Part shown: piece after piece, positions 15,986 to 42,204 of the stretch | How positions within the stretch are numbered: the stretch's first letter is position 1 | Layout: every line of letters begins with the position of its first letter | Assembly: GCA_052327205.1 (NCBI GenBank) | Contig: CM126209.1 | Span: 121,396,001 to 121,460,000 of the forward strand | Direction of reading: 5' to 3' | DNA: 64,000 nt | Source of the DNA: Somniosus microcephalus | Taxonomy: Eukaryota | Notes under the pieces: generated by a model | Database searches by the model: none | Told to the model about the DNA's origin: nothing | Seen by the model: the letters and a program-made list of their open reading frames with translations, nothing else | Translations under genes and position numbers: made by a program

Positions 15986-16964
15986 GCTCTTTTGAATTTG
16001 CAGTTTGCTGAAGTCGGCAAGTATTTTTTTAACTAAAGAAACTAGTTTAAAAGGGGCGTGCCTGGAGGACATTTGTTAGGTTAATCTCTTTCTCTTTAGC
16101 AAGTGAGAAGTACTGGAACAGCCATGGCCCATTGACATCACAATAATGTCACATGTAAGTGATGTGTGTGCGTGTAATGTGTTCCGAGATAATTTACATC
16201 AATGTTACTTTTTCACCACTTTAACACCAAGGGAAAACTGTAGTTTATTCCTGCCCTGTGGAAATTAGCAGCCATGTGTATTAACATTATTGTTTGTCTT
16301 CCGAAACATGATGCAGGGAAATTAGGCGGATGAGCTCCTGAGTAACATAATGTTTACAGGAGAAAGGAAAATCATTTTTCCAGAACAAACTCTCATGATG
16401 GAAACCTTTACTAGGGACAGAGAACGGTACCGTGGACCTCAGGTGTTGATATCCGAGTTCCTGACCTTCACCCTTTCTATGTGTGAGGGTCAGGATAAGA
16501 AGGAGGGTCACAAGCACTGTTCCCTCTAAGGTGCGCGGCTGCGCTCGCACACTAATCCCTGAGCTCCCACGCAGCTGAATTGAAATGCCCTGCAGAGAGC
16601 TGGACAGTAGCTGGAGCGGGGGAGGGGCCCAATACACGATGGCCCCGGGAATCCAGACAGACTCGTTTGTGAGTCTTGCGGCCTCAGAAGCCAATCACAA
16701 CTGCAGCTCTTGAAGCGTGTGTTCCGATGGTTGCTGTGTAACGCTGGGAGGGGTTTGGTTTTCTCCCTTGAATTTGGACCTTTCAGTGGGACAGCGGAAG
16801 AATCCCCCGCACTTTGATTATTTGCCTTTGCAGCCTTCCGTGCTGGCTCACAGTATACCGGAGCCGTGCATGCGCAGTATCCAGATAGGCCGCACTTTCG
16901 TTGACTTCATGCAGAGGTCAGGGGATCCGTTGGTGGCCAGTGGGGGAAAGGTCGAGGATCGAAA

Positions 16965-18371
16965 GGGGGGAGAGAGAGAATCGGAGGAGGGAGAGAGAGA
17001 GACTGGGGGAGAGAGATACCGGGGAGAGAGAGAGAGAGACTGGGGAGAGAGAGAGAGAAACTGGGGTGGGGGAGGAGAGAGAGAGAGACAGGGAGAGAGA
17101 GAGGGACTGGGGGAAGAGAGAGAGTGACTGGGGGAAGAGAGAGAGAGACTGGGGGAAGAGAGAGAGAGACTGGGGAAGAGAGACTGGGGGAGAGAGAGAG
17201 ACTGGGAGAGAGAGAGACTGGGAGAGAGAGAGAGACTGGGGGAGAGAGAGAGACGGGGGGGAGAGAGAGACTGGGGGTGAGAGAGAGACTGGGGGAGAGA
17301 GAGAGACTGGGGGAGAGAGATACTGGGGGGAGAGAGAGAGAGAGACTGGGGAGAGAGAGAGAGAAACTGGGGTGGGGGAGGAGAGAGAGAGAGATGGGGT
17401 GAGAGAGAGACGGGGTGAGAGAGAGACAGGGAGAGAGAGAGACTGGGGGGAAGAGAGAGAGAGACGGGGAAGAGAGAGAGAGACGGGGGAGAGAGAGAGA
17501 GACTGGGGATGAGAGAGAGAGACTGGGGAGAGAGAGAAACTGGGTGAGAGAGAGAGAGACTGGGGAGGAGAGAGAGAGGCTGGGGAGGAGAGAGAGAGAC
17601 GGGGAGGAGAGAGAGACTGGGGAGGAGAGAGAGAGACTGGGGTGAGAGAGACTGGGGAGAGAAAGAGAGACTGGGGGAGGAGAGAGGGACTGGGGGAGGA
17701 GAGAGAGACTGGGGAGAGAGAGAAACAGGGGAGAGAGAAAGAGAGACTGGGGAGGAGAGAGACTGGGGAGGAGAGAAACTGGGGGGGAGAGAGAGAGGGG
17801 GCGGGGGGAGAGAGAGAGGGGTGGGGGAGAGAAAGAGGGGCTGGGGAGAGAGAGAGAGAGACTGGGGGAGGAGAGAGAGACTGGGTGAGACGGGGGTGAG
17901 AGAGAGAGATGGGGTGAGAGAGAGAGACGGGGAGAGAGAGAGAGACGGGGAGAGAGAGAAACTGGGGGTGAGAGAGAAACGGGGTGAGAGAGAAACTGGG
18001 TGAGAGAGATGGGGAGAGAGAGAGAGAGAGATGGGGAAGAGAGAGCGAGACGGGGAGAGAGAGCGACTGGGGGGAGAGAGAGAGAGACGGGGAGAGAGAG
18101 AGACTGGGGAGAGAGAGAGAGAAAGATGGGGAACAGAGAGAGACTGGGGGAGAGAGAGAAACTTGGGGAGAGAGAGAGAGAAACTGGGGGAGAGAGAGAG
18201 AAACTGGGGGAGAGAGAGACTGGGGGGGACAGAGAGACGGGGAGAGAGAGAGGGACTGTTGAGAGAGAGAGACTGGGGGAGTGAGAGAGAGACTGGGGGA
18301 GGAGAGAGTGACTGGGCGAGAGAGAGAAAAACTGGGGGAGGAGAGAGGGAGATGGGGAGAGAGAGAGAGAC
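16965..18371 (+). repeat. GA-rich degenerate tandem array (GAGAGAGAGACTGGGGGA-like); continues at 28847-29085 and 29856-30045
   Basis: Visible purine-rich repeat; the three pieces are separated by the ERV and a LINE. Confidence 0.95.
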
Positions 18372-19840
18372 TGCAAAGGAATAGCCATATTTCAGAAAAA
18401 TACACTATCCTAGGAATGGAATTTTGACTTTATTAAAACATGAAAACTGGGTTTAAAAATCTAAAAGCCTCAAAGACACAAATCTGTAGATACAGGCTTC
18501 TGAGATAAGATGGGTTTGTTGACACAAAGCTGTAAACACCATACAAGCTTTTGAAATGGGTATGGCTGTCAATACTAAAACAAAGGCCCTATTGAAGAAG
18601 CAAAGGGTTGCTTCCAGAAAGTCTGCAGTTTGGGAGAAACACAATATCATTACCCAGTTTAAAGTGTTATAAACTAACACTTCGAACAGATACACAGAAC
18701 ATTAAAAAGCCATGTGCCTTTGATAAAAGTAACATCAAATGAAAGACAGGAGACATAAGTTTGTAATACAACCAACTAAGATGGCTAGGAAAACAATCAA
18801 GTACTTGGTTGAAGTGTTTTTGATTTACATATTGTAAAAGGTACAAACAGAAGACTTTGTAGATATGATATCAATAGATGCACCAAGCAATCACATTGTG
18901 TTTGTACTGAACTTGGAATAACTGGGAGACGAGAAGTCTGCTTTCAACCAGCTAAAGTGATTTAAGAATTAAATAGAAGACCTTCGTAAGAATGGCATCA
19001 AATAGATACATCTGTCATAACCATTTTTTATGATAAGCTTTGAACACCTACATAGCAGACAGAATTCTGCAAGCTAACAGCTGAATTGACAGTAAGAAAG
19101 AAAAAAAGTCAACAGAAATATGACTAGAGATAATTAGCTTACATCAGCAGAAAACTTCAAAGGATATACCACTGCATAAAGAGTATAAAAAATAAAACTT
19201 TCAGATAGGAAGTCAGAAGTCGCTGAAAGGGGTAAGCGATTCTCTCACTCTTCAGAGGCAGGCTCTGTAAGTTTTTAACTCTTTGAGTCTCGGGGGTCAA
19301 AAGGGTACCTTTATTTGATTTTGGTGGATATCCTAGATTAGAAATAAGGCTTAGAAATGTAAAAATGTAATGAAGTTAAGATTTGAGAATAAGGATCTCT
19401 GAGAATAAGAATTGTAAGCTATTTGTTTTTAGAACTGTTAATATTGCGACTCAAATCACCAGCTGTTAAATACATGTTGGTTCTTTAATAAATCTACATT
19501 TTTTTAGAATTGTTTCACAGAGTACTTCTGTATCAAACTTGTGAACTCAATTTCTGTACACTCTTTGGTGAGGAGTTGCAGAGTTCTGGGGATGTTTTCC
19601 GAACCCTCATAATATCCGGAAGGTTACAGTCTAGTTAAACTTACTAAAAGTGCTATCTGGAAGACGGTAAGATCTTCAAGTCATTCCTTTCCTTTAGGGA
19701 GAGATAGTCTGGACCTTTAGACCCAATTAAGCGTCTTATAGGATTCGGCTTTCTCTAACTTTAGTTGAAGGCGAACGTCTGGGGAATATGCCTGATCCGG
19801 GGTAGCCTGAAAAGGGCTAGGATTAGTAATTATCCCTTTA
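18372..19840 (+). repeat. ERV 5' LTR (TATAAAA 19184, donor GTAAGT 19267, AATAAA 19487)
   Basis: Direct repeat of 27378-28846; starts TG; followed by PBS. Confidence 0.95.
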
Positions 19841-19842
19841 GT

Positions 19843-19856
19843 TGGCACCCAATGTG
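19843..19856 (+). promoter_or_regulatory. PBS, tRNA-Lys1,2-type
   Basis: TGGCACCCAATGTG equals TGGCGCCCAACGTG with two CpG-type transitions. Confidence 0.8.
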
Positions 19857-20194
19857 TGTGTTAACAAGTTGATACAGAACCTATACTTATATTTATATCT
19901 ATATCATCTTGTAGATTGTTAAGTATAGAAGAAGTGTTTTACTGACAGTGGTACTAAGACCCAGATTTATGTCTCTAGAGACAACAAGTCCCTGATCAGG
20001 CCTTGTAGAACTTAAATCAGAACTTCCTCAATATACCATTGAGGTCTAAAAATTTCTTATAAAGTTCATATTAAACCCTAACCGAGGTTAGGTCCTGACG
20101 AAATGGCAAACTGTTGGAATTGGCTAAGTCTTTTTATTAGGAAATTGAAACGATTGCTTTATTAGGGGAAATAATCCTATCCCTATACCTCCAC

Positions 20195-20750
20195 GAAACA
20201 TAGAAACATAAAAGATAGGAGCAGCAGTAGGCCAGTCGGCCCCTTGAGCCTGTTCTGCCATTTAATGAGATCATGGCTGATTATCCAAATTCAGTACCCT
20301 GTCCCTGCTTTCTCCCCATATCCCTTGACCCCTTTAGCCTTAAGAAATATATCTAACTCCTTCTTGAATATATTTAATAAGTTGGCCTCAACTGCCTTCT
20401 GTGGTAGAGAATTCCCCAAGTTCACCACTCTCTGGGTGAAGAAATTCCCTCTCATCTCAGTCCTAAATGGCTTACCCCTTATCTTTAGACTGTGGCCCCT
20501 TGGTCTGGACTCCCCCGCCATCGGGAACATCCTTCCTGCATCTAGTCTGTCTAGTCCTGTTAGAATTTTATAAGTTTCAATGAGATCCCCTCTCATTCTT
20601 CTAAACTCTAGCGAATATAAGCCTAATTGACCCAATCTCCCTTCATATGTCATTCCTGCCATCCCAGGTATCAGTCTGGTGAATCTTCGCTGCACTCCCT
20701 CCATGGCAACAACATCCTTCCTCAGATAAGGCGACAAAACTGCACACAAG
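20195..20750 (-). mobile_element. CR1 LINE 3' fragment inserted in ERV gag
   Basis: ORF 20291-20869 part ([13 protein letters not shown]...RGDLIETYKIL...FFTQRVV) and CATAGAAA tail. Confidence 0.9.
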
Positions 20751-21758
20751 ACCAAGTGATAATTTTTGAAATAGAAGGCTTTGATGCCGACGGAGCTGTT
20801 AGAACTCATCGCACGATTAATGTTGATCCCCAGAACCAGGGGATACAGAATATCCTGCGGGATAATCAAACAAATACTCCAAATCCACTAAATTCCTTAA
20901 TGATAAGGTGCACACCTGCACAACTGGGAGGCCTAATGAACGGTGCCCAACAAGGTGGTGGCAACCATGGCCAAATAGCAGGACCCGGAGCAGCCTATGC
21001 TCCTGGGGGCCATGGATTCCAGTTAAGGTGGCAAGCTCATGATGAAATAAATGACCACAATCTTCGAGAAAACTATAGACAGCTTAGAATCCATTATAAT
21101 CAATGCCGACAGGCACTAGCTCAATCTTATTTAAATGCTGAGGTGCAATGATTAATGGTCCAGTAAGCCAACCCCGGCAACCACAAATTGCACCCCTAGG
21201 TCAAGTAAACCTGAGCTCTATCTACACAATGTGTGGTAGACTGTGAAATACCAGCCAGGAAAAAACCTGCTGGCTTCTAACTAACCTTGATAAATTGGAA
21301 AACTGTTGCCAAGGTTGGAATGCCCAACACCTGAGGCAACTACTGCAAATGATACTACGTAAATACCCCCATTAAACCAGTGTAACAACTCGGTTCAAAT
21401 ATATGCTTATGTTCTCACGGCAACTCAGGGAGGGCATGTAATGGGTTCCATCAAGGAAATACTCACTAATACAGCCAAGGGCTGGTAGCTGCCTATAGAA
21501 TAGGCAAAGTACTTACACAGGATAACTGGGACATTGTCCACAGTTGCCTGGCCAATCAATATCAAAATACAGCCCTCAGACTTGCCTGTGAGGGTGCTCT
21601 AAACGATTATCGAGATAACCAACAAAGATGGGATAATGTCAATCGCATTATCCAATTAAATCATGACCTCTTAGGTCTACCACAAACTAAACCTATAATG
21701 AGATCAGAAACTAGGGATAAAAAAAACGGAGAAGGTACCTTTGGTACTCAGAAACAAG

Positions 21759-22515
21759 GGCCTAGATTTTCAGTATAGACAGTTTTGGGGCGCTAACCTT
21801 TGCGCCCGCCCGAAGTTAGCGCCCGCCCCAAAGTAGCGCCCCGTTGCCGGAAATTCAGTGGCTTCGCCCTAAGAGGTTGGTGGAGCGCTAAAAGAGGCGT
21901 TCCACTACTATCTTTAGGCGCTAAGCCGGCGGTGCAGAGCGCAACACCCGAGCTCGGGCGCAGCGCACGGCAGACACTCTGGTGCCAGTGAGCTCTTAAA
22001 GGGGAAGGGTGCATGTGTTTTTTTTCCATAGGCAGAGTTTGGGGGGAAAAGATGACGAGGAGGAGGAGGAGGAGGAGGAGGAGGAGGAGGAGGTGGTGGT
22101 GGTGGTGGTGGTGGTGGTGTCCGGAAACATAAATACACCGTTCACAACCACACACTTGATCCTTCCACACAACACATGCAGAGTGCCGTATATGGTGCAG
22201 GAGGAGTGCCCTTTAATTTGCGCTCCCCAGGGTGTGTTGCGTTCCATTTTACAAACGCTCTGGACGCCAGCCGCACAATGGGGCGGTCCGACTGAAGTTT
22301 GGATTCGGGGCGGCCAAAGGGCGTTGCACGAGGATGTGACGTCATCTTCTGCGCGCGCATCCGGGCGGCCGCTAAACTTTGCGCCGGCGCTAACGGGCAA
22401 CTTAATTTGGGGCGGGGCGCAAACTGCGCTGCGCCCAGGCGCTACACGCATAGCGCCCGAAAATCACTTCTCTTAAGGCGCTAACTGCTGGCGCAAGCAA
22501 CTGAAAATCTAGCCC
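21759..22515. mobile_element. Harbinger-type MITE inserted in ERV gag, with (GAG)n(GTG)n microsatellite
   Basis: 16-bp TIRs GGCCTAGATTTTCAGT / ACTGAAAATCTAGCCC; TSD AAG/ATG; removing it restores the gag frame (KQGLY). Confidence 0.85.
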
Positions 22516-24945
22516 ATGGACTATATAGACCGAAGTCTCAAGTCCACCCCGCCCAGACACAAACTCGTGGCTCGGGGCCCCCAAGAGGGTATTCCAGAAG
22601 GTTTACACCCCCAACTCACCCACAATACGAGAAAGATTTCTCCCCAGAAAGATGGGATAGACGAGGGGCTAGACCTCGAAAGGAAAGCGAAGGACAGTGG
22701 ACTCCCTATGGGGGCAGTTTCTACACTGGCCAAAACTATCAGAGAGCCATGGGAGGATACTGGGAAAACCGAAATGGGGATTAAAAAGATTCCCGGCAGA
22801 ACCAATGTCCACCCCAACAGGAGGATCGTCAAGATAATAAACGGTCTGACAAACCCCCTCAGGGATCTGGAAAACATGATACCCCCAAGAGGGAGGAACA
22901 AAAATCAGTTAAAATAATTAAAGACAAAGGAGCAAATGAAACTCAGCATCCTGAGGATGAACAATCCCAGGATTGGAGGCCTGGCACCCAGCCAGGGCCT
23001 CTTGAATTCCCCTATGCCCTCGCAACCTTGCCCACAAACACACAAGTGAAGGCCCTGTTTGATACGGGAGCTGATTACACTGTAGTAGATCCTGCAATTA
23101 TAAAAACTAAGTAGACAGGTTTGGGAAGCCCAATTTGTAAAAAATCATTAGGGGGATTCACACAAGAGAAAACCAAAATAGTTAATTTTTATAAAATACC
23201 TATTACTAAATATGGAATCACGGTGACCCTAGATGTAGGACTGGTACCACAATTGGCCTGTTCCCTCATTATAGGACAACCAGACATGAAACATTACCTT
23301 AAAACTTCAACCAGACTTGTAGAAGCAGCCACAGACCAGGATGACAGGGAAAAACATGTTTGAACACAGCTTGATCGAACTTGCCTAGAGGGGGAAGGCA
23401 AAGACCTCCTCAAGCAGCTCATTAATAGATACTACTCTTATCTATAACGCCATCCAAATCAATGTGGAAAGATAGAGCATCTCCCCATCATGGAGGATGA
23501 TGATACGGAGGAGGGAATCAGACAAATACCTATGAGACCGCTCAGAGAGTACCATCAAGTCATTTACTGTGATTGATCATCGATGACGATTAAAAAAGTG
23601 ACATCCCAACAATCCTCAGCTGGGATGGGGATAGTAGTAGGGACTTTGAGATTCCTATTCTTTTTATCCAGAAGAATTACTGTCTATACCCCTTGGCCAT
23701 AAGACAGTGCAATATGCTGAAGCCGCAGCATTACGGTATGCTTTAGAAAAGGCAGACCCTATTAAACCCACACTAATCTTTATGGATAGTGACTATTGTA
23801 AAAGAGGATATAACTAAGATCTAGTTTTCTGGGAACAAACAAATTTTACCAATCATAAGGGTAAACCCATAAAATATAAATCATTGTGGGAAGATATTCT
23901 CCGTTCGAGAATGGAGAAACAGAATTGTCAGGTGATTCATGTAAACGGGCATACCACTGGGACAGTACACTCAAAAGGAAACAGCCTTGCAGACGAACAA
24001 GCAAAACGTTCAGTCTGCATGACACCCCCTCGACAGGGACCTGTCAATGTTAGTGTAATCACTAGGGCAGAACGGGCAGCTAATCAGAATGAGGAACTGA
24101 TTCAGCTATTAGACCCAACAAAAGAGAATACACCAGGATATCCACCAAAGTACTTTGACTCGGAAACCCCTACGGGTATTGTGCTAGTTAAGTTGCCCAA
24201 GGGAAACCGAGAGGTACCCCCGAGACACAAATGAGGACAGCTTGTAAAAGAAGCTCACGAGGGCATAAGTCAAGCACATTTTGGTGCCAGAACAACATTC
24301 TGCAAATTGACCTGTAAAACATATGTGGCAAATTGTGAGCCATGCTATTTAACCAATAAGTCATCACTAATTAAGCCACCACCATTGGCTCCTGTGAAGG
24401 CTGATGAGCCAATGGGAAAATTCTTTATTGACTTTATTGGACCACTTTCCCCGTCTTTGGGATATAGACATGTTCTCGTTTGTGTAGATGGATGGACTTC
24501 CTTCTGCTGGCTGGTCCCCACAAAAACTGTTTCGGAAAATGCACTTGCCAGGGCTATTTCTGATATAATTACTGTAGCTGTGCACCCAAAACCTTACACT
24601 CCGATCAAGGATTCAAGGTTTTCAAAGACTACTGCGAACAAAGGGGGATTGGGTTAGAGCACAGCACGCCACATCATCCGCAATCAGCGGGGCTGGCGGA
24701 ATGTAAAAACCAGGGAGTAAAAAAGCTATTGGTCAAACTGTTGAGAATCAGGGGGAATAAGTGGACCACCATCATTCTGGAGGTGCAGCTATCACTCAAT
24801 AATGTGCCCACATCTGCATCAGGGACAGTGTCCCCTAAAACTCCATATTATCTGATGTATGGGCTTGAGATGCCTACACCGCTTACCCATAGTTCTTTTA
24901 TTGCCTCTACACACTCTGAGTCCTTGACCCGACAGCAACAGTTAG

Positions 24946-26451
24946 TGTCAGTGTCCCAGCTACACGTTCCTCTGCTGGCCGCCAGAGGGCGGTTTAGGAG
25001 GCCTCAGTACACTGCTGCCATGTCTCTGTGCCTCTCTCCTCACCTGTGTCTCATTAGGGTAATTGTCTCATCAGAGTAATCAGGCCTGTTATTTAAGCTG
25101 ACTATTTCCGGCCCCAGTCGCTCAGTCTTGAGTTCTCATGCCTGCTAGTCACAGGTTAGTTTCTGGTCCTTGCCCTGCGTTTTGTATACTCACTCTTGTT
25201 TCTTTGAATTGTTACTTTGATCTTTGGTTTGAAGAATTCACTGTACGTCCTGTATTTGAAGAGCCTTCTACTAAAGCATCTTTTGAGTTTTACTTCATCC
25301 CAGGTCTCTGGCTGTCTGTCTGCACTTGGGTCCACTACCTCACCCGTAACAGCAAGACTTTGCCATCAACATGGACCCAGCAGAAACCAGCCAACCAAGG
25401 GAGGAGATTAATCAACTGTGCTCTGCCCTGATGAGCCAGGGAGCCACGGTCGGGAGGCATGACCGTTTGCTGCGGGAGATTCGTGATAGCCTGCATTCCC
25501 TAACCGAGGCTGTTTGGCCACAGCCATGTGGGAGCAACAAACCCCTTCCTGGTCCAACTGTCGGATGTTCACCGAGGAGATGAGGCGAGTCTTCGACCAT
25601 CCTGTTAGCGGGCGAGAGGCGGCCAATAGACTGCTCCATCCCCATCAGGGGAATCATAGTGTATCGGACTATGCCATTGAATTCCGTACTCTCGCCACGG
25701 CATTTTGATTCAACTGGGTGTAATGAATCACCCGGGCATATTGATTCTCCTGGGCATACTGAATCTCCTGGGCATATTGAATCTCCTGGGCATATTGAAT
25801 CACCTGGGCATATTGAATCACCTGGGCATAATGAATCACCTGGGCACATTGAATCACCTGGGTGTAATGAAGTCCATTCAAGATACTCCGGAAGATAAAC
25901 CCAGTTATCTACCGTCTCCTGAGGAGCGCTCCTGGGTTCTGGCTCGGGACATCCAGGATCCTGGGCTTATCCGGCAGTTCCACCGGCACCAGCCAGAGGC
26001 TACTGTGGGGACGTCAGGTGCCATCCCTAGGCGGGGGGGGGCTACTGTCAGGGTCCCAGCTACACGTTCCTCTGCTGGCCGCCAGAGGGCGGTTTAGGAG
26101 GCCTCAGTACACTGCTGCCATGTCTCTGTGCCTCTCTCCTCACCTGTGTCTCATTAGGGTAATTGTCTCATCAGAGTAATCAGGCCTGTTATTTAAGCTG
26201 ACTATTTCCGGCCCCAGTCGCTCAGTCTTGCGTTCTCATGCCTGCTAGTCACAGGTTAGTTTCTGGTCCTTGCCCTGCGTTTTGTATACTCACTCTTGTT
26301 TCTTTGAATTGTTACTTTGATCTTTGGTTTGAAGAATTCCCTGTACGTCCTGTATTTGAAGAGCCTTCTACTAAAGCATCTTTTGAGTTTTACTCCATCC
26401 CAGGTCTCTGGCTGTCTGTCTGCACTTGGGTCCACTACCTCACCCGTAACA
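24946..26451 (+). mobile_element. Non-autonomous Sushi/chromovirus LTR retrotransposon (1506 bp) inserted in ERV integrase
   Basis: 406-bp LTRs 24946-25351 and 26046-26451 (4 differences), TSD GTTAG, gag remnant (ATAMWE..MRRVFDHP..SVSDYAIEFRTLA), chromodomain tail (PEERSWVLARDIQDPGLIRQFH). Confidence 0.92.
25706..25870 (+). repeat. 18-bp tandem repeat (TTGAATCACCTGGGCATA), about 9 units
   Basis: Visible tandem array in the internal part of the mini-element. Confidence 0.9.
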
Positions 26452-27367
26452 GTTAGATTTAAAAAAAGAAGTAACAAAGGAGATTCATCGAATTGATCAG
26501 TGGATAAGGGAAGCAAATAGGCAGAAAAAATTGGCAAATAAAGCATAGCAACCCATAGTAGGAGAATGGGTGCAGGAAAAGAAGTTCGAGCAAAAACCTG
26601 GTTTAAGACCAAAGTGGAAAAAACCTGTTCAAATACATTCTGTTATTAACGAAAGAACAGTTAAAATACATATTAACCAGCCGAATGGCAAGCATATTCT
26701 TAAAACTGGCTCCGTAGACAATATCAAAAGATATCCTGCGGGATACTGAAAAGGAGGAACAATACAAGGTGCAGTCGTACACTGTCTTTCAAGACCCAGC
26801 TTGGAGCACGACACAGGAAATGGATGCGATCGAATTGCTGACGATGGTCAGTCAGACGGTGTCGCTGGCTCCTCCACACGTTGCTTGGCAACGCATCAGG
26901 AATTGGATTCACAAAAAGCAGCAACCGAAACAAGGAAAGATAAACGAGTTACTTCAGCGAAGGAGGAAGACACCACGGATGAAGAAGGAATCAACTGAGT
27001 GCCTGGCAAGGCCTTTACGAAAACATGCATCTGTACACAAGCCGGATCGAAGGAACAGCGTGTCAAGCTTCAACTAGTTTCAAATGACGTCTCCTTGACT
27101 CGTATGAATAACTCACCTCTATGGAACGTACATCTGCCGATTGGACATTCTAAGTACATGTTGTTTCGCTAATTGCATGACTATGTACCAATCATCCTTT
27201 TAAATTGTGTTCAATTTAAAATAAGGCAAAACATTGTCGTAGGATGACTTAAAAGGAATTTTCATGTAGCACATGATTGTGCATCTCGTGAAATTAATGT
27301 GCTATTGTAACCTTATTAGGAATATTGACCAAACTCTGCCCTGATGTTATGAGCTCATTTTTTGGTC

Positions 27368-27377
27368 AAGGGGGGGG
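27368..27377 (+). promoter_or_regulatory. Polypurine tract of the ERV
   Basis: AAGGGGGGGG immediately before the 3' LTR TGTAAAGG. Confidence 0.85.
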
Positions 27378-28846
27378 TGTAAAGGAATAGCCATATTTCA
27401 GAAAAATACACTATCCTATGAACGGAATATTGAGTTTATTAAAACATGAAAACTGGGTTTAAAAATCTAAAAAGCCTCAAAGACACAAAGCTGTAGATAC
27501 AGGCTTCTGAGATAAGATGGGTTTGTTGACACAAAGCTGTAAACACCATACAAGCTTTTGAAATGGGAACGGTTGTCGATACTAAAACAAAGGCCCTATT
27601 GAAGAAGCAAAGGGTTGCATCCAGAAGGTCTGCAGTTTGGGAGAAACACAATATCATTACCCAGTTTAAAGTGTTATAAACTAACACTTCGAACAGAAAC
27701 ACAGAACATTAAAAAGCCATGTGCCTTTGATAAAAGTAACATCAAATGAAAGACAGGAGACATAAGTTTGTAATACAACCAACTAAGGTGGCTAGGAAAA
27801 CAATCAAGTACTCGGTTGAAGTGTTTTTGATTTACATATTGTAAAAGGTACAAACAGAAGACTTTGTAGATATGATATCAATAGATGCACCAAGCAATCA
27901 CATTGTGTTTGTACTGAACTTGGAATAACTGGGAGACGAGAAGTTTGCTTTCAACCAGCTAAAGTGATTTAAGAATTAAATAGAAGACCTTCGTAAGAAT
28001 GGCATCAAATAGATACATCTGTCATAACCATTTTTTATGATAAGCTTTGAACACCTACATAGCAGACAGAATTCTGCAAGCTAACAGCTGAATTGACAGT
28101 AAGAAAGAAAAAAAGTCAACAGAAATATGACTAGAGATAATTAGCTTACATCAGCAGAAAACTTCAAAGGATAAACCACTGCAAAAAGAGTATAAAAAAT
28201 AGAACTTTCAGATAGGAAGTCAGAAGTCGCTGAAAGGGGCCAGCAATTGTCTCACTCTTCAGAGGCAGGCTCTGTAAGTTTTTAACTCTTTGAGTCTCGG
28301 AGATCAAAAAGGTACTTTTATTTGATTTTGGTGGATATCCTGGATTAAAAATAAGACTTAGAAATGTAAAAATGTAACGAAGTTAAGATTTGAGAATAAG
28401 GATCTCTGAGAATAAGAACTGTAAGCTATTTGTTTTTAGAACTGTTAATGTTGCGACTGAAATCACCAGCTGCTAAATACATGCCGGTTCTTTAATAAAT
28501 CTATATATTTTTGGAATTGTCTCAGAGTATTTCTGTATCAAACTCACGAACTCAATCTCTGTACACTCTTTGGTGAGGAGTTGCAGAGTTCTGGGGGGGG
28601 ATTTCCAGACCCTCATAATATCTGGAAGGTTACAGTCTAATTAAACTTATTAAAAGTGCTATCTGGAGGATGGTAACATCTTCAAGTCGTTCCTTTCCTT
28701 TAGGGAGGGATAGTTTGGACCTTTAGATCCAATTAAGCGTCTTATAGGATTCAGCTATCTCTAACTTTAGTTGAAGGCGAACGTCTGGGGAACATGCCTG
28801 ATCCGGGGTAGCCCAAAAAGGGCTAGGACTAGTAAGTATCCCTTCA
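27378..28846 (+). repeat. ERV 3' LTR
   Basis: TG...CA, 1469 bp, direct repeat of 18372-19840. Confidence 0.95.
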
Positions 28847-29085
28847 AGATGGGCGAGAGAGAGAGAGAGACTGGGGGAGAGAGAGAGATAGAGACTGGGA
28901 GAGAGATAGAGAGACGGGGAGGAGAGAGTGAGAGAGACTGGGGGGAGAGAGAGACTGGGAGAGAGAGAAAGAGACTGGGAGAGAAAGAGACTGGAAGAGA
29001 GAGAGACTGGGAGAGAGAGAGAGACTGGGAGAGAGACAGAGACGGGGAGGAGAGAGAGAGCGAGATGGGAAGGAGAGAGAGAGAG

Positions 29086-29855
29086 ACTGAAACTAAGTAC
29101 TCAGCCGGACCCTGACCAGCCCCAGACCAACACAGCCGTCCAAACACCAATCCGAGTGAACCAAATCATTAAAAAATGCAAAGAAACCTACCTGGAACAT
29201 TGGAACAAAATAACCGAAAGCCAAAGCAGATTAGAATGTTACCGGGCCCTAAAAAGAGAATATAAACTGGCAGACTACCTCACGACCATCAGAGACACAA
29301 AACAGAGACAGACCCTCACCAGGTACAGACTAAGCGACCACCAACTGGAAATTGAAAAAGGCAGATACAAGAAATCCTGGCAGCCTAGAGAGAATAGAAT
29401 ATGCGATCAATGTCTGGCTGGCGAGGTTGAAACAGAAATGCATTTCCTCCTAAAATGCGAAAAATTCAACACATCAAGAAACATATTATTCAACAAGCTA
29501 AGCCAAACAACCCCAGATTTCAAGGAATTGGATGATCTGTCAAAATTGAGATTAGTCCTAGGAGAAGGAGACAGACCATACCTTGGGGCTAAATATGTAA
29601 CAACATGTCACAACCTGAGGACTGTTTAAAAGTAAGACTGTTTAAAATTAATATTGAACGTACCAAATGAAGTAGAAAGACTGTTTAAAATTAATATTGT
29701 TTAAAAGTAATATTGTATATACCCAACAAATGTCAAATCGATTGACACCTACAGAATGTTGGAAAACTGTACCTTTTTGCTATGTAAGCTTTGGCAATAT
29801 GGTTCTCTGTAAACTTTCATGCCAATAAAGCATTTGAACTGAACTGAACTGAACT
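29086..29855 (+). mobile_element. 5'-truncated non-LTR retrotransposon, probably RTE-X-like, with (GAACT)n tail
   Basis: Open frame to 29629 with LTRYRLSDHQLEIEKGRY...ICDQC...ETEMHFLLKC zinc finger; AATAAA then (GAACT)4; clade assignment tentative. Confidence 0.75.
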
Positions 29856-34753: not shown

Positions 34754-36154
34754 GCCATGGTGTGGAGATGCCGGTGTTGGACTGGGGTGGACAAGTGTAA
34801 GAAACCACACAACACCAGGTTATAGTCCAACAGCTTTATTTGAAATCACAAGCTTTCGGAGCGCTGCTCCTTCGTCAGTTGAAGTGGAGAGATGCATAAA
34901 AACACAGCTTATATAGTCAGAGAATAATTTCAGATGTTTACAGGTAATCTTTCTAACTGCCATTTATCACACCTCGGCAGAGAGATAATCACAGCAATCA
35001 AAGGTGTAAATGGTGTCCAAACAGGTCAGTCAGGAAAACATTACATCAAAGAGCAATGAGGTGGGGTCACAAGGGGTCAAATGTTGCAGATGCTGGGGTC
35101 TGTATGAAAAACAAAAAAAGACAAAAAACATTTTTTTTGCTGGAAATCACAGCAAGTCCGGCCGCATCTGTGTGGAGAGAACAAGCCAACGACGACTCGA
35201 GTCTGGATGACCCTACGTCAGGTGGGGTTACATGTAGCGTGACATGAACCCAAGATCCCGGTTCAGGCCATCCTCATGGGTGCGGAGCTTGGCTATCAGT
35301 TTCTGCTCGATGATTTTGCGAGACATGCCAGATCATCAACACAGATACCATCATCACACGTGAGGACACCACCCACCAGGTACATGGTACATACTCATGT
35401 GACTCGGCCAACGTTGTCTACCTCATACGTTGCAGGAAAGGTTGCCCCGGAGCACGGTACATCGGCGAGACCATGCAGACACTGCGACAACGGATGAACG
35501 GACACCGCGCAACAATCGCCAGGCAGGAGTGTTCCCTCCCAGTCGGGGAACACTTCAGCAGTCAAGGACATTCAGCCTCCGATCTTCAGGTAAGCATTCT
35601 CCAAGGCGGCCTTCGAGACACACGACAACGCAAAATCATCGAGCAGAAACTGATAGCCAAGTTCCGCACCCATGAGGACGGCCTGAACCGGGATCTTGGG
35701 TTTATGTCACACTACATGTAACCCCACCTGACGTAGGGTCATCCAGACTCGAGTCGTCGTTGGCTTGTTCTCTCCACACAGATGCGGCCGGACCTGCTGT
35801 GATTTCCAGCAAAAAAAATGTTTTTTGTCTGTTTTTTTGTTTTTCATACAGACCCCAGCATCTGCAACATTTGACCCCTTGTGACCCCACCTCATTGCTC
35901 TTTGATGTAATGATTTCCTGACTGACCTGTTTGGACACCATTTACACCTTTGATTGCTGTGATTATCTCTCTGCCGAGGTGTGATAAATGGCAGTTAGAA
36001 AGATTACCTGTAAACATCTGACATTATTCTCTGACTATATAAGCTGTGTTTTTATGCATCTCTCCACTTCACCTGACGAAGGAGCAGCGCTCCGAAAGCT
36101 GGTGATTTCAAATAAAGCTGCTGGACTATAACCTGGTGTTGTGTGACTTCTTAC
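34754..36154 (+). mobile_element. 5'-truncated Penelope-like element with inverted pLTR arm
   Basis: 13-bp TSD ATATGATTAGATT; GIY-YIG endonuclease (NVVYLIRC...RYIGETMQTLRQRMNGH...GLNRD) at 35320-35721; inverted arms 34797-35320 / 35629-36154. Confidence 0.92.
36069..36105 (+). ncRNA. Minimal hammerhead motif in Penelope pLTR (mirror copy 34846-34882, minus strand)
   Basis: TCAC-CTGACGA-A-GGAGC-AGC-GCTCC-GAAA-GCT(G/T)-GTGA. Confidence 0.7.
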
Positions 36155-36661
36155 ATATGATTAGATTCCACTGCATCGGTCACCTTCTGATATCGCAACC
36201 AAGGGTTATTCTTCGTAATTGAAGGAACAGTGAGTGCCGGCAGACTACTCGACCAAGTAAGGAATCACAGCTAAGCCTGATTTGCATGCTGTACAGCAGA
36301 GATCACTGAATAGCAATCTAGAGAGGACACCGCTGGATGATTACCCCCAGCTCTCCCCCACCCCATCCAGCACAGGGTGTTGTGACTAATTACAATACTC
36401 TAGGTCAGTACAGATTGAGAATCGAACCTAGGGCTTTCTGATGCAAATGGCATCGTACCACATTGGCCGGTTCCATTACTCACTATGGCACCTATATTCA
36501 CAGTGGTCAATCCGCTGTGAAATCAGCTGCTCATAATTGTGTAACTATAGGGATGACACTCCCTCCTAGCCTGTTTCCTTATGGGCCATTCCCTTACCTC
36601 CACCGCCCATGATGGGACAGCTGAAAGCAGTGGCTCACCACAGGGGGAAACACAAGCCTTA

Positions 36662-36868
<207 letters not shown>

Positions 36869-38580: not shown

Positions 38581-40009
38581 CTTGAGGGAAACATGAGGGA
38601 AAATAACATTCCCAAGAGGAGGTGAACGTGTGACTTCCTCTCACTGAGGATATTCCCGTTTGCAGTAGAGCTGGGTCACTGAAAAGCTTTCAGCTCTGCA
38701 GTAAAGCTCTGCATGTTGGCCTTTCTACAGGCCATTCTGTCAAGTGAATGCAAGAGAGCAAGAAATAAAGCAAGACTATCAGCCCATCATCCCCACTCCT
38801 TCCACTGCCCATGTACACCCTGCCCTATCGAGACTCTACCACACACCTTTAAGGGAAACTCCCACCTCACTAGACCGGAGCATGGGTCATAGACTTGGCC
38901 CCTTACACCATTACAGCCCTATCTCCGAACCGTGCTCCTGTCTAGTGAGGCTCCCCCATAGTGAACGGAGCCTCCCAAATTGCCCCTTTAATCTCGGGGG
39001 GAAAATCGGCATAAATTTTCCTTTATTTGCAAAGGCAATTGATCCATCCTCACACCGCCACAGCCTGCTGCTGTCCAGACACCATTCCTTGCCTCACACT
39101 ACTGGGATCAGATGGGCTATCCTTGGCTACAGCAAACAAAAGACACAATGTAAGGAGCTTGGCAACAATTCCATGTTGCACACAGATAAATAAATCACCA
39201 GGCACGGTGCTCTCGGGAGCTGAGGAGTTGACAGGCTCTTATTATTATCATACAAATTATTCCTGCACACATTACGCTAAAGAAAATGTACATACTGTGA
39301 AACCCGGCAAAGGAAATTGAGAAAAATCTATTAAGCTAGCCTTAATTCTCTTTCAAGTAATTTTATTTGTGATTCGTGTAATTTAAGTGGCAAACATGTA
39401 GCAGTATGTGATTCCAGATAAATAACGGGCCTCTTGATTTATCTGTTATTTGCCCTGAATTCTATTCTTGCCATTCATTAATATTTCAATAATATGTAAT
39501 AAAAACTCTGGAAATCTGAAATCAAAAGAGCAAATGTGGGTCAGAATCTGAATGGGAAATGTAATGTGTTGGACTGTTACGTTGTGTACTTCTGACATCT
39601 TCTATTTTGATTTTGGAGCATATAATCTCTTTGTTGCTATTAAGCATCACCTTCCATGTTTACAAGCCATGCAGCTCCATTTCCCAGCAGTGTTGTAGTA
39701 TGCTGAAACTGATGAGCTTGGCTTTCATCCACCAGCCACTGGCAGGGACACTCCACTGTGCAGTATGTCCAGTAGAACCTCGAGTAACCACACTCTCAGT
39801 GTTCACACTCTCAATGTTCTGGGAGTTTTGATTGAGCTTTGCATAACTTAGCTAAAATACAATTGAGTATTTTAAGTTGTGTCTAGTGCTTGGTAGAATT
39901 TACTATCCACTTAGCTTTGATTTTTATTATTGAGTCAGGGCTTCAGGGCAGGAAACCAGCAGAACCCAGGCTTCAGGTCAAAAGCCAGCAGGACTTAGGC
40001 TTCAGACTA

Positions 40010-41540
40010 GGAGACCAGCAGGACTCAGGGATTTGGAGCAGGAGACCAGCAGGACTCGGGGATTTGGAGCAGGAGACCAGCAGCACTTGGGGATTTGGAG
40101 CAGGAGACCAGCAGGACTCGGGGATTTGGAGCAGGAGACCAGCAGCACTCAGGGATTTGGGGCAGGAGACCAGCAGGACTCGGGGATTTGGGGCAGGAGA
40201 CCAGCAGCACTCGGGGATTTGGAGCAGGAGACCAGCAGCACTCGGGGATTTGGAGCAGGAGACCAGCAGCACGTGGGGATTTGGAGCAGGAGACCAGCAG
40301 GACTCGGGGAGTTGGGGCAGGAGACCAGCAGCACTTGGGGATTTGGAGCAGGAGACCAGCAGGACTCGGGGAGTTGGGGCAGGAGACCAGCAGGACTTGG
40401 GGATTTGGAGCAGGAGACCAGCAGCACTCGGGGATTTGGAGCAGGAGACCAGCAGCACTCAGGGATTTGGAGCAGGAGACCAGCAGGACTCGGGGATTTG
40501 GGGCAGGAGACCAGCAGGACTCGGGGATTTGGAGCAGGAGACCAGCAGCACTCGGGGATTTGGAGCAGGAGACCAGCAGGACTCGGGGATTTGGGGCAGG
40601 AGAGCAGCAGGACTCGGGGATTTGGGGCAGGAGACCAGCAGGACTCGGGGATTTGGAGCAGGAGACCAGCAGCACTCAGGGATTTGGGGCAGGAGACCAG
40701 CAGGACTCGGGGATTTGGGGCAGGAGACCAGCAGCACTCGGGGATTTGGAGCAGGAGACCAGCAGCACTCGGGGATTTGGAGCAGGAGACCAGCAGCACG
40801 TGGGGATTTGGAGCAGGAGACCAGCAGGACTCGGGGAGTTGGGGCAGGAGACCAGCAGCACTTGGGGATTTGGAGCAGGAGACCAGCAGGACTCGGGGAG
40901 TTGGGGCAGGAGACCAGCAGGACTCGGGGATTTGGAGCAGGAGGCCAGCAGCACTCGGGGATTTGGAGCAGGAGACCAGCAGGACTTGGGGATTTGGAGC
41001 AGGAGACCAGCAGCACTCGGGGATTTGGAGCAGGAGACCAGCAGCACTCAGGGATTTGGAGCAGGAGACCAGCAGGACTCGGGGATTTGGGGCAGGAGAC
41101 CAGCAGGACTCGGGGATTTGGAGCAGGAGACCAGCAGCACTCGGGGATTTGGAGCAGGAGACCAGCAGGACTCGGGGATTTGGGGCAGGAGAGCAGCAGG
41201 ACTCGGGGATTTGGGGCAGGAGACCAGCAGGACTCGGGGATTTGGGGCAGGAGACCAGCAGGACTCGGGGATTTGGAGCAGGAGACCAGCAGCACTCGGG
41301 GATTTGGAGCAGGAGACCAGCAGGACTCGGGGATTTGGAGCAGGAGACCAGCAGGACTCGGGGATTTGGGGCAGGAGACCAGCAAGACTCGGGGATTTGG
41401 GGCAGGAGAGCAGCAGGACTCGGGGATTTGGGGCAGGAGACCAGCAGGACTCGGGGATTTGGGGCAGGAGACCAGCAAGACTCGGGGATTTGGGGCAGGA
41501 GACCAGCAGGACTCGGGGATTTAGAGCAGGAGACCAGCAG
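40010..41540 (+). repeat. 31-bp minisatellite (GGAGACCAGCAGGACTCGGGGATTTGGAGCA), about 49 units
   Basis: Visible tandem array; produces the repetitive multi-frame ORFs. Confidence 0.97.
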
Positions 41541-42204
41541 GAGTCAGGCTGCCAGAATTTTATTGTGATATCTCATTTTTAAAGTGATAAATGTGGGTTG
41601 TAACTCCACATGCAGTGAACTTGATTGGGTAATCTCAATCAGAAGTCAAAACCTCATAACTGTATCAGGTTCAGATTAGGTGGACACTTGATTATCTAAC
41701 ATTCTGCCGAGGGGGCAGGGATAATTGTGATTCCACTGTAATCATGTTGTTAGTCATTACAACTAAAGTTGATTTTATTGTCTGCCCCAGTGACTCAGTG
41801 GGAAAGTTCTCTTTTTGCCATTGAGCCATAAAGACCAGAAAGTCCCAAGTTTGATTCTTGGTCTGTGTTGAGTTAGACTATCTCAGTTAGGATGGGGGCA
41901 GGGTGGGGTGCTGCAGCTGACCTGGAGAGGAGAAAAATCAGCCAGTATTCTCACTTCCGCTCATTATCCAGACACCAGTGCAAAGTGCCTGTGTGTAGAG
42001 ATTCTTGTGAACAAAGGACTTGGCTTGTGATAGCTGCCAAGGCAAATTGCCTGCCATGGTCTCAAAAGGCACACAAAGGAAGAATGCCACTTGTAAAAAG
42101 TAACAGAGGGATGGTAGGAAGGCACCACCCCCAACATAACCATCCATGTCCAGGAATATAAAGGACATTGAATAAAAAGTTGGTATTATTTTGTAGCACA
42201 CAGA

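Follow-up and report, generated by a model that had tools for sequence, protein, structure and literature searches.

The 64,000-nucleotide stretch of the Somniosus microcephalus genome analyzed here (contig CM126209.1, positions 121,396,001 to 121,460,000; below, the window) carries an endogenous foamy-like provirus on its plus strand, at window positions 18372-28846, which is 10.5 kb long with the elements nested in it and ~7.7 kb without them. We consider it probable that this provirus is a decayed copy, devoid of both reverse transcriptase (RT) and env, of a high-copy foamy-like endogenous retrovirus (ERV) that likely made its Gag-Pol by readthrough of a stop codon, spread inside germ cells and, in its RT-less form, borrowed RT. 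The original prediction had recognized a foamy-like provirus from the window sequence. This identity stood up, as foamy-type Pfam cut-offs are passed by Gag, protease (PR) and the C-terminal domain of integrase (IN), but the description was incomplete: the missing RT, the near absence of env, the large size of the family, the nested inserts and the frame shared by gag and pol had been overlooked.

Profile searches placed Gag_FV_central, Spuma_A9PTase, SH3_11 and RNase_H above cut-off. The foamy-like capsid (CA) region predicted in Gag was recovered with PF20672 (Gag_FV_central) at 32.5 bits (cut-off 30) in the window copy, and the Gag central domain of the family scored 49.7 bits with the same profile. 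Evidence for Env came from env-bearing parents, in which the foamy Env profile PF03408 was above cut-off. No CCHC zinc knuckle was found in any forward frame of 70/70 gag stretches, the Gag tail, predicted to be Gly/Arg-rich, is Gly/Arg/Gln-rich by inspection, and the peptides SSAGMGIV, SIPLGHKT, GYPPKY, KFFIDFIGPL and LRPKWKKP, on which the prediction had relied, are all present in the translation. The best matches among solved structures were prototype foamy virus (PFV) integrase for IN and PFV Gag for Gag. Since the window copy has no RT, RT was taken from a sister copy (L077), whose natural 531-aa PR-RT frame matched the foamy PR-RT (Pr125Pol) structure at 4.5e-99, compared with 2.4e-32 for Ty3. 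Over its core, the L077 RT shares 48-52% identity with mammalian foamy viruses; named non-foamy matches in the same search reached at most 35%. In a tree of 27 rows, a subset of 71, the L077 RT shared a clade (support 99/96) with Pol proteins of mammalian foamy viruses (seven, all named) and three further sequences. Gypsy and gamma/epsilon-like rows stood outside this clade, whose sister clade (99/97) includes teleost sequences. A Scyliorhinus RT fragment was among the nearest relatives, which is consistent with a cartilaginous fish as host, and the approximately unbiased (AU) test rejected a grouping with two non-foamy retroviral RTs (p=2e-6). The RT active site of the family is YVDD, an A9 protease is in frame with RT, and IN carries an N-terminal extension and SH3_11. 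As in foamy viruses, the primer binding site (PBS) is of the Lys type, the target-site duplication (TSD) is 4 bp long, and the junction between polypurine tract (PPT) and long terminal repeat (LTR) reads GGGTG, a motif taken from PMC5210030 (papers are cited by PMC number).

The predicted affinity with Spumaretrovirinae thus holds for each gene tested (Gag, protease, RT, IN and Env), and, judged by its sequences, the family belongs by descent with the foamy viruses. That it represents a distinct foamy lineage, as had also been proposed, is plausible from the identity of the RT core, as compared with mammalian foamy viruses. A first protein search with the RNase H-integrase (RH-IN) region had an epsilon-like fish protein as its sole match, and a viral-contig scan with an integrase piece found no relative. 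A Scyliorhinus torazame gene model, P0049, fuses a PRDM-type SET domain with a fragment of foamy-like RT and is probably a gene-prediction artefact.

The junction of gag and pol was analyzed codon by codon in 85 copies (87 mapped, two near-duplicates dropped), whose modal lengths yield a single frame running from Gag through PR, RT and RNase H to IN. Stops are found in at least 15% of copies in ten of 1,745 codon columns, nine of which are CGA codons decaying at CpG. Only one column of the 1,745, at window positions 22974-22976 and 29 codons before the catalytic Asp of the protease, has a stop as its commonest codon; it is bimodal, with either TGA or TGG, and the TGA is not a product of CpG decay. 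TGA is present in 3/3 env-bearing copies that cover this codon, in 21/34 RT-positive and in 11/35 RT-less copies, and is enriched in the RT-positive class (TGA/TGG 21/11 vs 11/20 in RT-less copies, Fisher p=0.024). Exact-pattern counts, which cover the whole 6.4-Gb assembly, gave 242 gag-end matches, 148 with TGA and 94 with TGG. Under three other organism labels, TGA accounted for ~78-85% and TGG for 15-22% of contig depth, reads having been mapped on a TGA copy and depth being no copy number. As a control, 27 other Trp columns contained TGA in 30 of 1,411 TGG/TGA/TAG codons, with no column above 6.8%.

No in-frame ATG is kept between the gag-end stop and the protease catalytic Asp. One natural stop-free frame spans the Gag tail, PR, the junction left by the RT deletion and RNase H, and another natural open frame begins right after the TGA and extends for 531 aa through PR and RT. 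Pol is, therefore, not a separate open reading frame (ORF) with its own ATG in a frame other than that of gag; rather, a conserved in-frame stop lies between two coding regions under selection. Because there is one frame, TGA is widespread and no in-frame ATG follows it, UGA readthrough is the simplest route to Pol and the one that we favor with moderate confidence. In a 1,687-aa foamy-like protein, P0019, Gag and Pol likewise share an open frame; this protein, whose grouping with the family is weak (87/78), would be another instance of a gag-pol fusion close to the root of the foamy clade. No significant alignment was obtained between its Gag and the Gag of the family. Two candidate features of the junction were rejected. 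A hairpin after the stop, visible by eye, is no better than in shuffled sequences and is not preserved in two of three env-bearing copies. A-to-I editing was considered as the source of TGG: D' values of 0.14 and 0.10 with the two nearest shared sites, against a mean of 0.61 (<60 nt), hint at a repeated origin of TGG, and two sites in the presence of pervasive recombination are too weak to carry this explanation.

In the window copy, the protease runs straight into RNase H. The RT-less junction has 67 exact matches in the genome, compared with 138 for intact RT. The deletion measures exactly 1,272 nt in 35/38 mapped cases, with a 4-nt microhomology, and corresponds approximately to PFV Pol residues 150-570, so that the polymerase and the tether are gone while PR and RNase H are spared; it ends near domain borders. 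In env-bearing loci covering the site, ~1.25 kb of RT lies between the two sides of the junction. With a junction-spanning query, 39/39 other scored copies covered the junction end to end (40 of 1,154 candidates were scored with this query, a selection biased towards the junction). The same skip was seen in 4/4 public sequencing runs bearing four organism labels. RT-less copies are located on many contigs, with different flanks and 4-bp TSDs of their own, and differ by 6.7% on average in RH-IN, as do RT-positive copies. Thus, one deletion is found in many independent insertions with their own TSDs and a helper is present, as is the case for non-autonomous ERVs amplified in trans. An RT-less copy has no RT of its own to offer, and by established retrovirology it must be complemented in trans (PMC8922424).

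Other deletions were multiplied as well. An in-frame gag deletion of 951 nt (window positions 21074-22763 minus the insert) removes CA and is carried by six RT-less and two RT-positive copies (L004, L007, L011, L025, L028, L035, L082 and L091); its presence in both RT classes points to recombination among the deletion types. Of the shared deletions, 4/5 keep the frame (binomial p=0.045 vs 1/3), as do 7/10 of all large deletions (p=0.02), a bias that may be due to protein use or only to packaging signals and the stability of the RNA. A 2,295-nt in-frame deletion of PR, RT and most of RNase H is common to two env-bearing copies (C5:42.35-42.36 Mb, L061-L062, and C20:21.88 Mb, L059-L060), from which it follows that a pol-defective form with env was also multiplied.

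The copies and solo LTRs of the family were also counted. An LTR 20-mer has 5,679 exact matches genome-wide, mostly solo in the sample: no internal sequence was found beside 18/20 sampled LTR places, and 10 of the 20 are solo LTRs with an exact 4-bp TSD. Taken with the in-sample match rates of the three patterns (23/37 for the RT-less junction, 26/38 for intact RT and 43/80 for the LTR), the counts suggest a rough family size of ~110 RT-less copies, ~200 RT-positive copies and ~10,000 LTRs, with roughly some 300-400 internal regions in the genome. The foamy Env profile search, in contrast, returned at least 11 matches at 9 loci (a floor, from a stricter first look), to which a DNA search added a tenth env-bearing locus. 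Eight of the nine are 77-94% identical at the DNA level to the window gag-pol and the ninth shares LTR and env; as a group, env-bearing loci are more diverged than env-less copies. In these loci env sequence follows window position 27025 and is in turn followed by ~0.8 kb with broken frames, without a Pfam match in the two stretches scanned. Env is absent from 18/18 RT-positive and 25/26 RT-less copies covering the env junction, and the 26th has a longer gap; one env deletion is thus common to nearly all sampled copies. The distance between the two LTRs is 0.017-0.101 (median 0.052) in 21 env-less copies, and the single env-bearing copy with both LTRs has 90-93% identity between them. Since the family is large but only 10 env-bearing loci were found, it probably spread inside cells. 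Tandem multiplication of family pieces was also observed: LTRs recur every 2-3.6 kb, three gag-end matches are spaced by 3.4 kb, and two copies lie head to head (C1:74.38-74.41 Mb, L139; C13:55.008-55.016 Mb; L033).

For variants shared by at least three copies, a dN/dS-type ratio of 0.29 was obtained in RT-positive and 0.40 in RT-less copies (p=1.7e-7 for the RT-less class), while singleton variants are near neutral (0.84 and 0.93, respectively). The constraint on shared variants and the near neutrality of singletons indicate that the frame was used during replication. All four gametes were present in 3,344/6,735 site pairs, which, together with the occurrence of the gag deletion in both RT classes, is what co-packaging and recombination of genomes would be expected to produce.

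The following course of events can be proposed. Spread would have started from env-bearing parents, seen at 10 loci. Loss of env would have turned the virus into an intracellular retrotransposon, leaving the ~10,000 LTRs. One in-frame 1,272-nt deletion took RT and the tether and multiplied to ~110 copies, the RT-less RNAs presumably being co-packaged with RT-positive RNAs and copied in trans. The in-frame TGA would have been read through occasionally to yield Pol; TGG copies would have made only the fusion, and may have depended on TGA copies or complemented them. The window copy integrated antisense in an intron of STK32, gained three nested insertions and decayed neutrally.

Several points weigh against this scheme. 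Only three env-bearing copies cover the gag-end stop. An RNA stimulator after the stop is unsupported (folding z of -0.6 to -1.4 relative to shuffles), part of the hairpin is disrupted in env-bearing copies, and the leaky contexts that PMC3542737 lists do not include UGA-A (here UGA-AGG). GTAAG, a donor-like site in gag, is retained in 36/48 copies and, paired with a weak acceptor that follows the stop in phase, makes a spliced route possible. Variants private to RT-less copies are under no significant constraint (20/9, ratio 0.64, p=0.26), which leaves protein use in cis unsupported. A DNA tree of 60 copies (RH-IN) is star-like: it does not resolve RT-less copies as a clade and is uninformative about the order among env-less copies. 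The sampled copies are the best-scoring ones and no random draw; the match rates rest on them, so the family sizes are rough. Finally, the RT tree contains no named ERV-L, lokiretrovirus, coelacanth, amphibian or cartilaginous fish endogenous foamy virus (CFEFV) sequence.

The alternative that fares best concerns the RT-less copies. The chances seem to us even that PR-RNase H-IN and the in-frame deletions mattered as RNA only, for packaging, Pol encapsidation or escape from nonsense-mediated decay, and that RT-less copies gave no useful protein. This would qualify the RT-deletion step and is compatible with readthrough. In foamy genomes, the cis element CAS-II is located in 3' pol. Foamy genomes need this second cis element, with a Pol-encapsidation signal and a central PPT (PMC7828637), and multiplication of the CA-removing gag deletion to eight copies and the lack of significant constraint on private variants of RT-less copies both agree with a role as RNA. 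The in-frame state of 4/5 shared deletions and the position of the RT deletion near domain borders speak for protein, yet both fit RNA stability equally.

It is also conceivable, though unlikely, that Pol came from a spliced mRNA from which the TGA is removed and which is translated from the start codon of Gag or from another one upstream; this would be a variation on foamy splicing, and no recoding is needed for it. Foamy viruses make Pol from a spliced mRNA (PMC7828637); an AG 14 nt after the stop is present in 68/72 copies, it and the GTAAG donor-like site are both in phase 0, and readthrough has no significant RNA stimulator on its side. However, the putative acceptor lacks a pyrimidine tract (41% pyrimidines), and no stop interrupts the Pol frame in the 15 codons that separate the TGA from the acceptor region. 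Moreover, known foamy pol genes lie in a different frame from gag and carry an ATG of their own, as in NviFLERV-2 and AciFLERV (PMC5512871), whereas none is kept here. Much less likely still, TGG could be the working ancestral state, with an obligatory Gag-Pol polyprotein like that of single-ORF retrotransposons, and TGA an inactivating change spread in trans. TGG does make up 94/242 exact matches, and P0019, which groups weakly with the family, is such a single Gag-Pol frame, but TGA is found in all three env-bearing, more diverged copies and is enriched in RT-positive ones, and other Trp codons do not decay to TGA likewise.

Deletion of RT after integration, followed by segmental duplication or gene conversion, is hardly credible: a few loci are indeed duplicated (L015, L026 and L027; L087 and L097), but the distinct TSDs, different flanks and many contigs of RT-less copies, which diverge in RH-IN as much as RT-positive copies, largely refute it. 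L015, L026 and L027 are near-identical and truncated at the same place, and represent a segmental duplication or unmerged haplotypes; two of the three were dropped from the variant counts. We regard as just as remote an assignment of the element to the lokiretroviruses or to the class III viruses of ERV-L/ERV-S type, for which a gag-TGA-pol order would be ordinary: gag and pol of XtERV-S share a frame that is split by TGA (PMC8278194) and the RT tree has no named reference for these groups, but the identity of the RT core to foamy viruses, the 99/96 clade, the foamy Gag, protease and Env profiles, YVDD and the absence of a dUTPase-like motif (searched for with a sequence pattern) all stand against it.

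The features of the window copy are collected in Table 1.

Table 1. Features of the foamy-like provirus and its host intron (window positions)
Feature	Position	Strand	Remarks
Left TSD	18368..18371	+	AGAC
5' LTR	18372..19840	+	1,469 bp; TATAAA at 19184, AATAAA at 19487
PBS	19843..19856	+	tRNA-Lys1,2 type; two decayed positions
gag	20103..22976	+	ATG at 20103; ~530 codons minus two nested inserts; broken in window copy
Nested long interspersed nuclear element (LINE) 3' fragment	20200..20744	-	not in sister copies
Nested non-autonomous DNA transposon	21759..22515	.	16-bp terminal inverted repeats
gag-end codon	22974..22976	+	TGG in window copy
Protease	22977..23472	+	in gag frame; catalytic Asp codon 23061; PF03539 (Spuma_A9PTase)
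RT-deletion junction	23473..23476	+	TAGA microhomology; 1,272 nt gone in frame
RNase H	23540..24010	+	Asp codons 23571 and 23785
Integrase N-terminal extension, zinc-binding domain and core	24060..24945	+	Asp 24430, Asp 24603, Glu 24699
Nested non-autonomous LTR element	24946..26448	+	418-bp LTRs, 98% identical; Retrotrans_gag remnant below cut-off
Integrase C-terminal part	26449..26745	+	PF18103 (SH3_11)
env 5' remnant	26746..27025	+	~90 codons, cytoplasmic leader; overlaps pol 3' end in another frame
env-deletion junction	27025..27029	+	most of env and part of accessory region gone vs env-bearing loci
PPT	27371..27377	+	G7; yields GGGTG PPT:LTR junction
3' LTR	27378..28846	+	1,469 bp; TG...CA
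Right TSD	28847..28850	+	AGAT; one mismatch
STK32 exon bounding host intron	36731..36868	-	STK32A match 5.9e-17

As can be seen, the predicted LTR length was borne out. The two LTRs share 1,398 identical columns (Kimura two-parameter distance, K2P, 0.049), and the 5' LTR ends in TA where the 3' LTR ends in CA. At 2.2e-10 per site per year, the rate assumed in PMC4422223, the copy would be ~110 million years old, or several times younger if the rate was faster. The PBS at 19843, TGGCACCCAATGTG, agrees with the predicted Lys1,2 type: it matches the AciFLERV tRNA-Lys PBS (PMC5512871 supplement) at 12/14 positions, the last 4 of 18 nt being different, and the first 14 nt are exact in many sister copies. 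The predicted 4-bp TSD is real for the family, being exact in 6/8 proviruses with both ends available as well as in the solo LTRs; in the window copy itself it is imperfect. Three unrelated nested elements make up ~2.8 of the 10.5 kb; we take the LINE fragment, by its appearance, to be CR1-like. Decay is further evident from 13 stops in the scored codon columns and several frameshifts, and only ~600 bp separate the end of integrase from the 3' LTR.

STK32 exons are found on the minus strand at ~46867, 42888 and 36731-36868, and another exon resembling STK32, recognized by a motif alone, lies ~44 kb to the left of the window. With minus-strand exons on both sides, the provirus is intronic and antisense to STK32, as predicted. 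It is embedded in a long GA-rich simple repeat (16900-18371 and 28851-29000), and a LINE-like 3' fragment follows on its right (28910-29629). An STK32 intron contains a tandem array of ~26 copies of a ~62-bp unit (39932-41548), and the window a 525-bp inverted repeat, 97% identical and with arms 309 bp apart (34796-35320 and 35629-36155), which is a foldback or MITE-like (miniature inverted-repeat transposable) element.

Taken together, the family likely works as an env-less retrotransposing ERV with an orthoretrovirus-style Gag-Pol. A foamy-like ERV in a cartilaginous fish is already known by itself; what is new is the in-frame gag-TGA-pol junction and the env-less, partly RT-less amplification to thousands of LTRs, although a prior description is possible in the CFEFV paper. 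Neither readthrough nor an RT-less derivative in a foamy-like ERV was found in the literature searched, and the CFEFV paper or preprint supplements may already show the gag-pol layout. In textbooks, foamy viruses are defined by Gag-independent expression of Pol, and Env is said to be required for their budding. A gag-TGA-pol order in one frame in a foamy family bears on when the spliced-pol strategy arose, and the series of env-bearing, env-less, RT-less and capsid-less forms shows which parts a foamy-like genome needs in cis. More tentatively, and with somewhat less confidence than in readthrough itself, we suggest that a foamy lineage made Pol by UGA readthrough, packaged its enzymes in the orthoretroviral manner and became an Env-free germline retrotransposon (~10,000 LTRs), in which co-packaging let stop-less (TGG), RT-less and capsid-less genomes exchange parts. 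In that case, a separately spliced pol mRNA would not be common to the whole foamy clade and may have arisen later, on the tetrapod-coelacanth branch.

Among known systems, a cartilaginous fish endogenous foamy virus, CFEFV, is reportedly, by its title, the subject of Wang, Chen and Cui 2023 (J Virol 97:e01816-22), and the family may be a member of it. Together with CFEFV and CmiFLERV, for which only pol was detected (PMC5512871), it belongs to the foamy-like ERVs of cartilaginous fishes. With the exogenous foamy viruses (PFV and simian, SFV; feline, FFV; equine, EFV) it shares long LTRs, a Lys-type PBS, a 4-bp TSD, the GGGTG junction, Gag_FV_central without a zinc knuckle, the A9 protease, a YVDD RT, the IN N-terminal extension with SH3_11 and, in the parents, a foamy Env. 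Unlike in these viruses, which make Pol via a spliced mRNA and never as Gag-Pol (PMC7828637), gag and pol share one frame, with TGA between them and no pol ATG. NviFLERV and AciFLERV have in common with the family a foamy-like pol, a 4-bp TSD and a Gly/Gln/Arg-rich Gag tail without a Cys-His box; however, pol of the newt NviFLERV-2 and the cichlid AciFLERV is a separate ORF in another frame, overlapping gag by 125 nt and 1 nt, respectively (PMC5512871). Foamy fossils have been called extremely rare (PMC8922424), and copy numbers of 9-131 are reported for amphibian and teleost FLERVs (PMC5512871, PMC5210030), whereas this family was massively amplified without env; AcERV and DrFV, in contrast, have an env under purifying selection.

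XtERV-S is alike in having gag and pol in one frame with a single TGA that is read through, but it is a class III lineage with a gamma-type env (PMC8278194). Gamma- and epsilonretroviruses, likewise with gag and pol in one frame and a single stop that is read through, are also of a different lineage and use UAG with a pseudoknot or stem-loop (PMC3542737), a structure for which we obtained no support in the family. A closer parallel in mode of spread is offered by ERVs that lost env. The deletion derivatives of MaLR and IAP are examples of complementation in trans. Like the env-less ERV superspreaders (PMC8922424), the family combines loss of env, a high copy number and defective copies living on borrowed proteins; it differs from them in that it is a foamy-like lineage whose non-autonomous form has lost RT alone and retains an open frame from Gag and PR through RNase H to IN.

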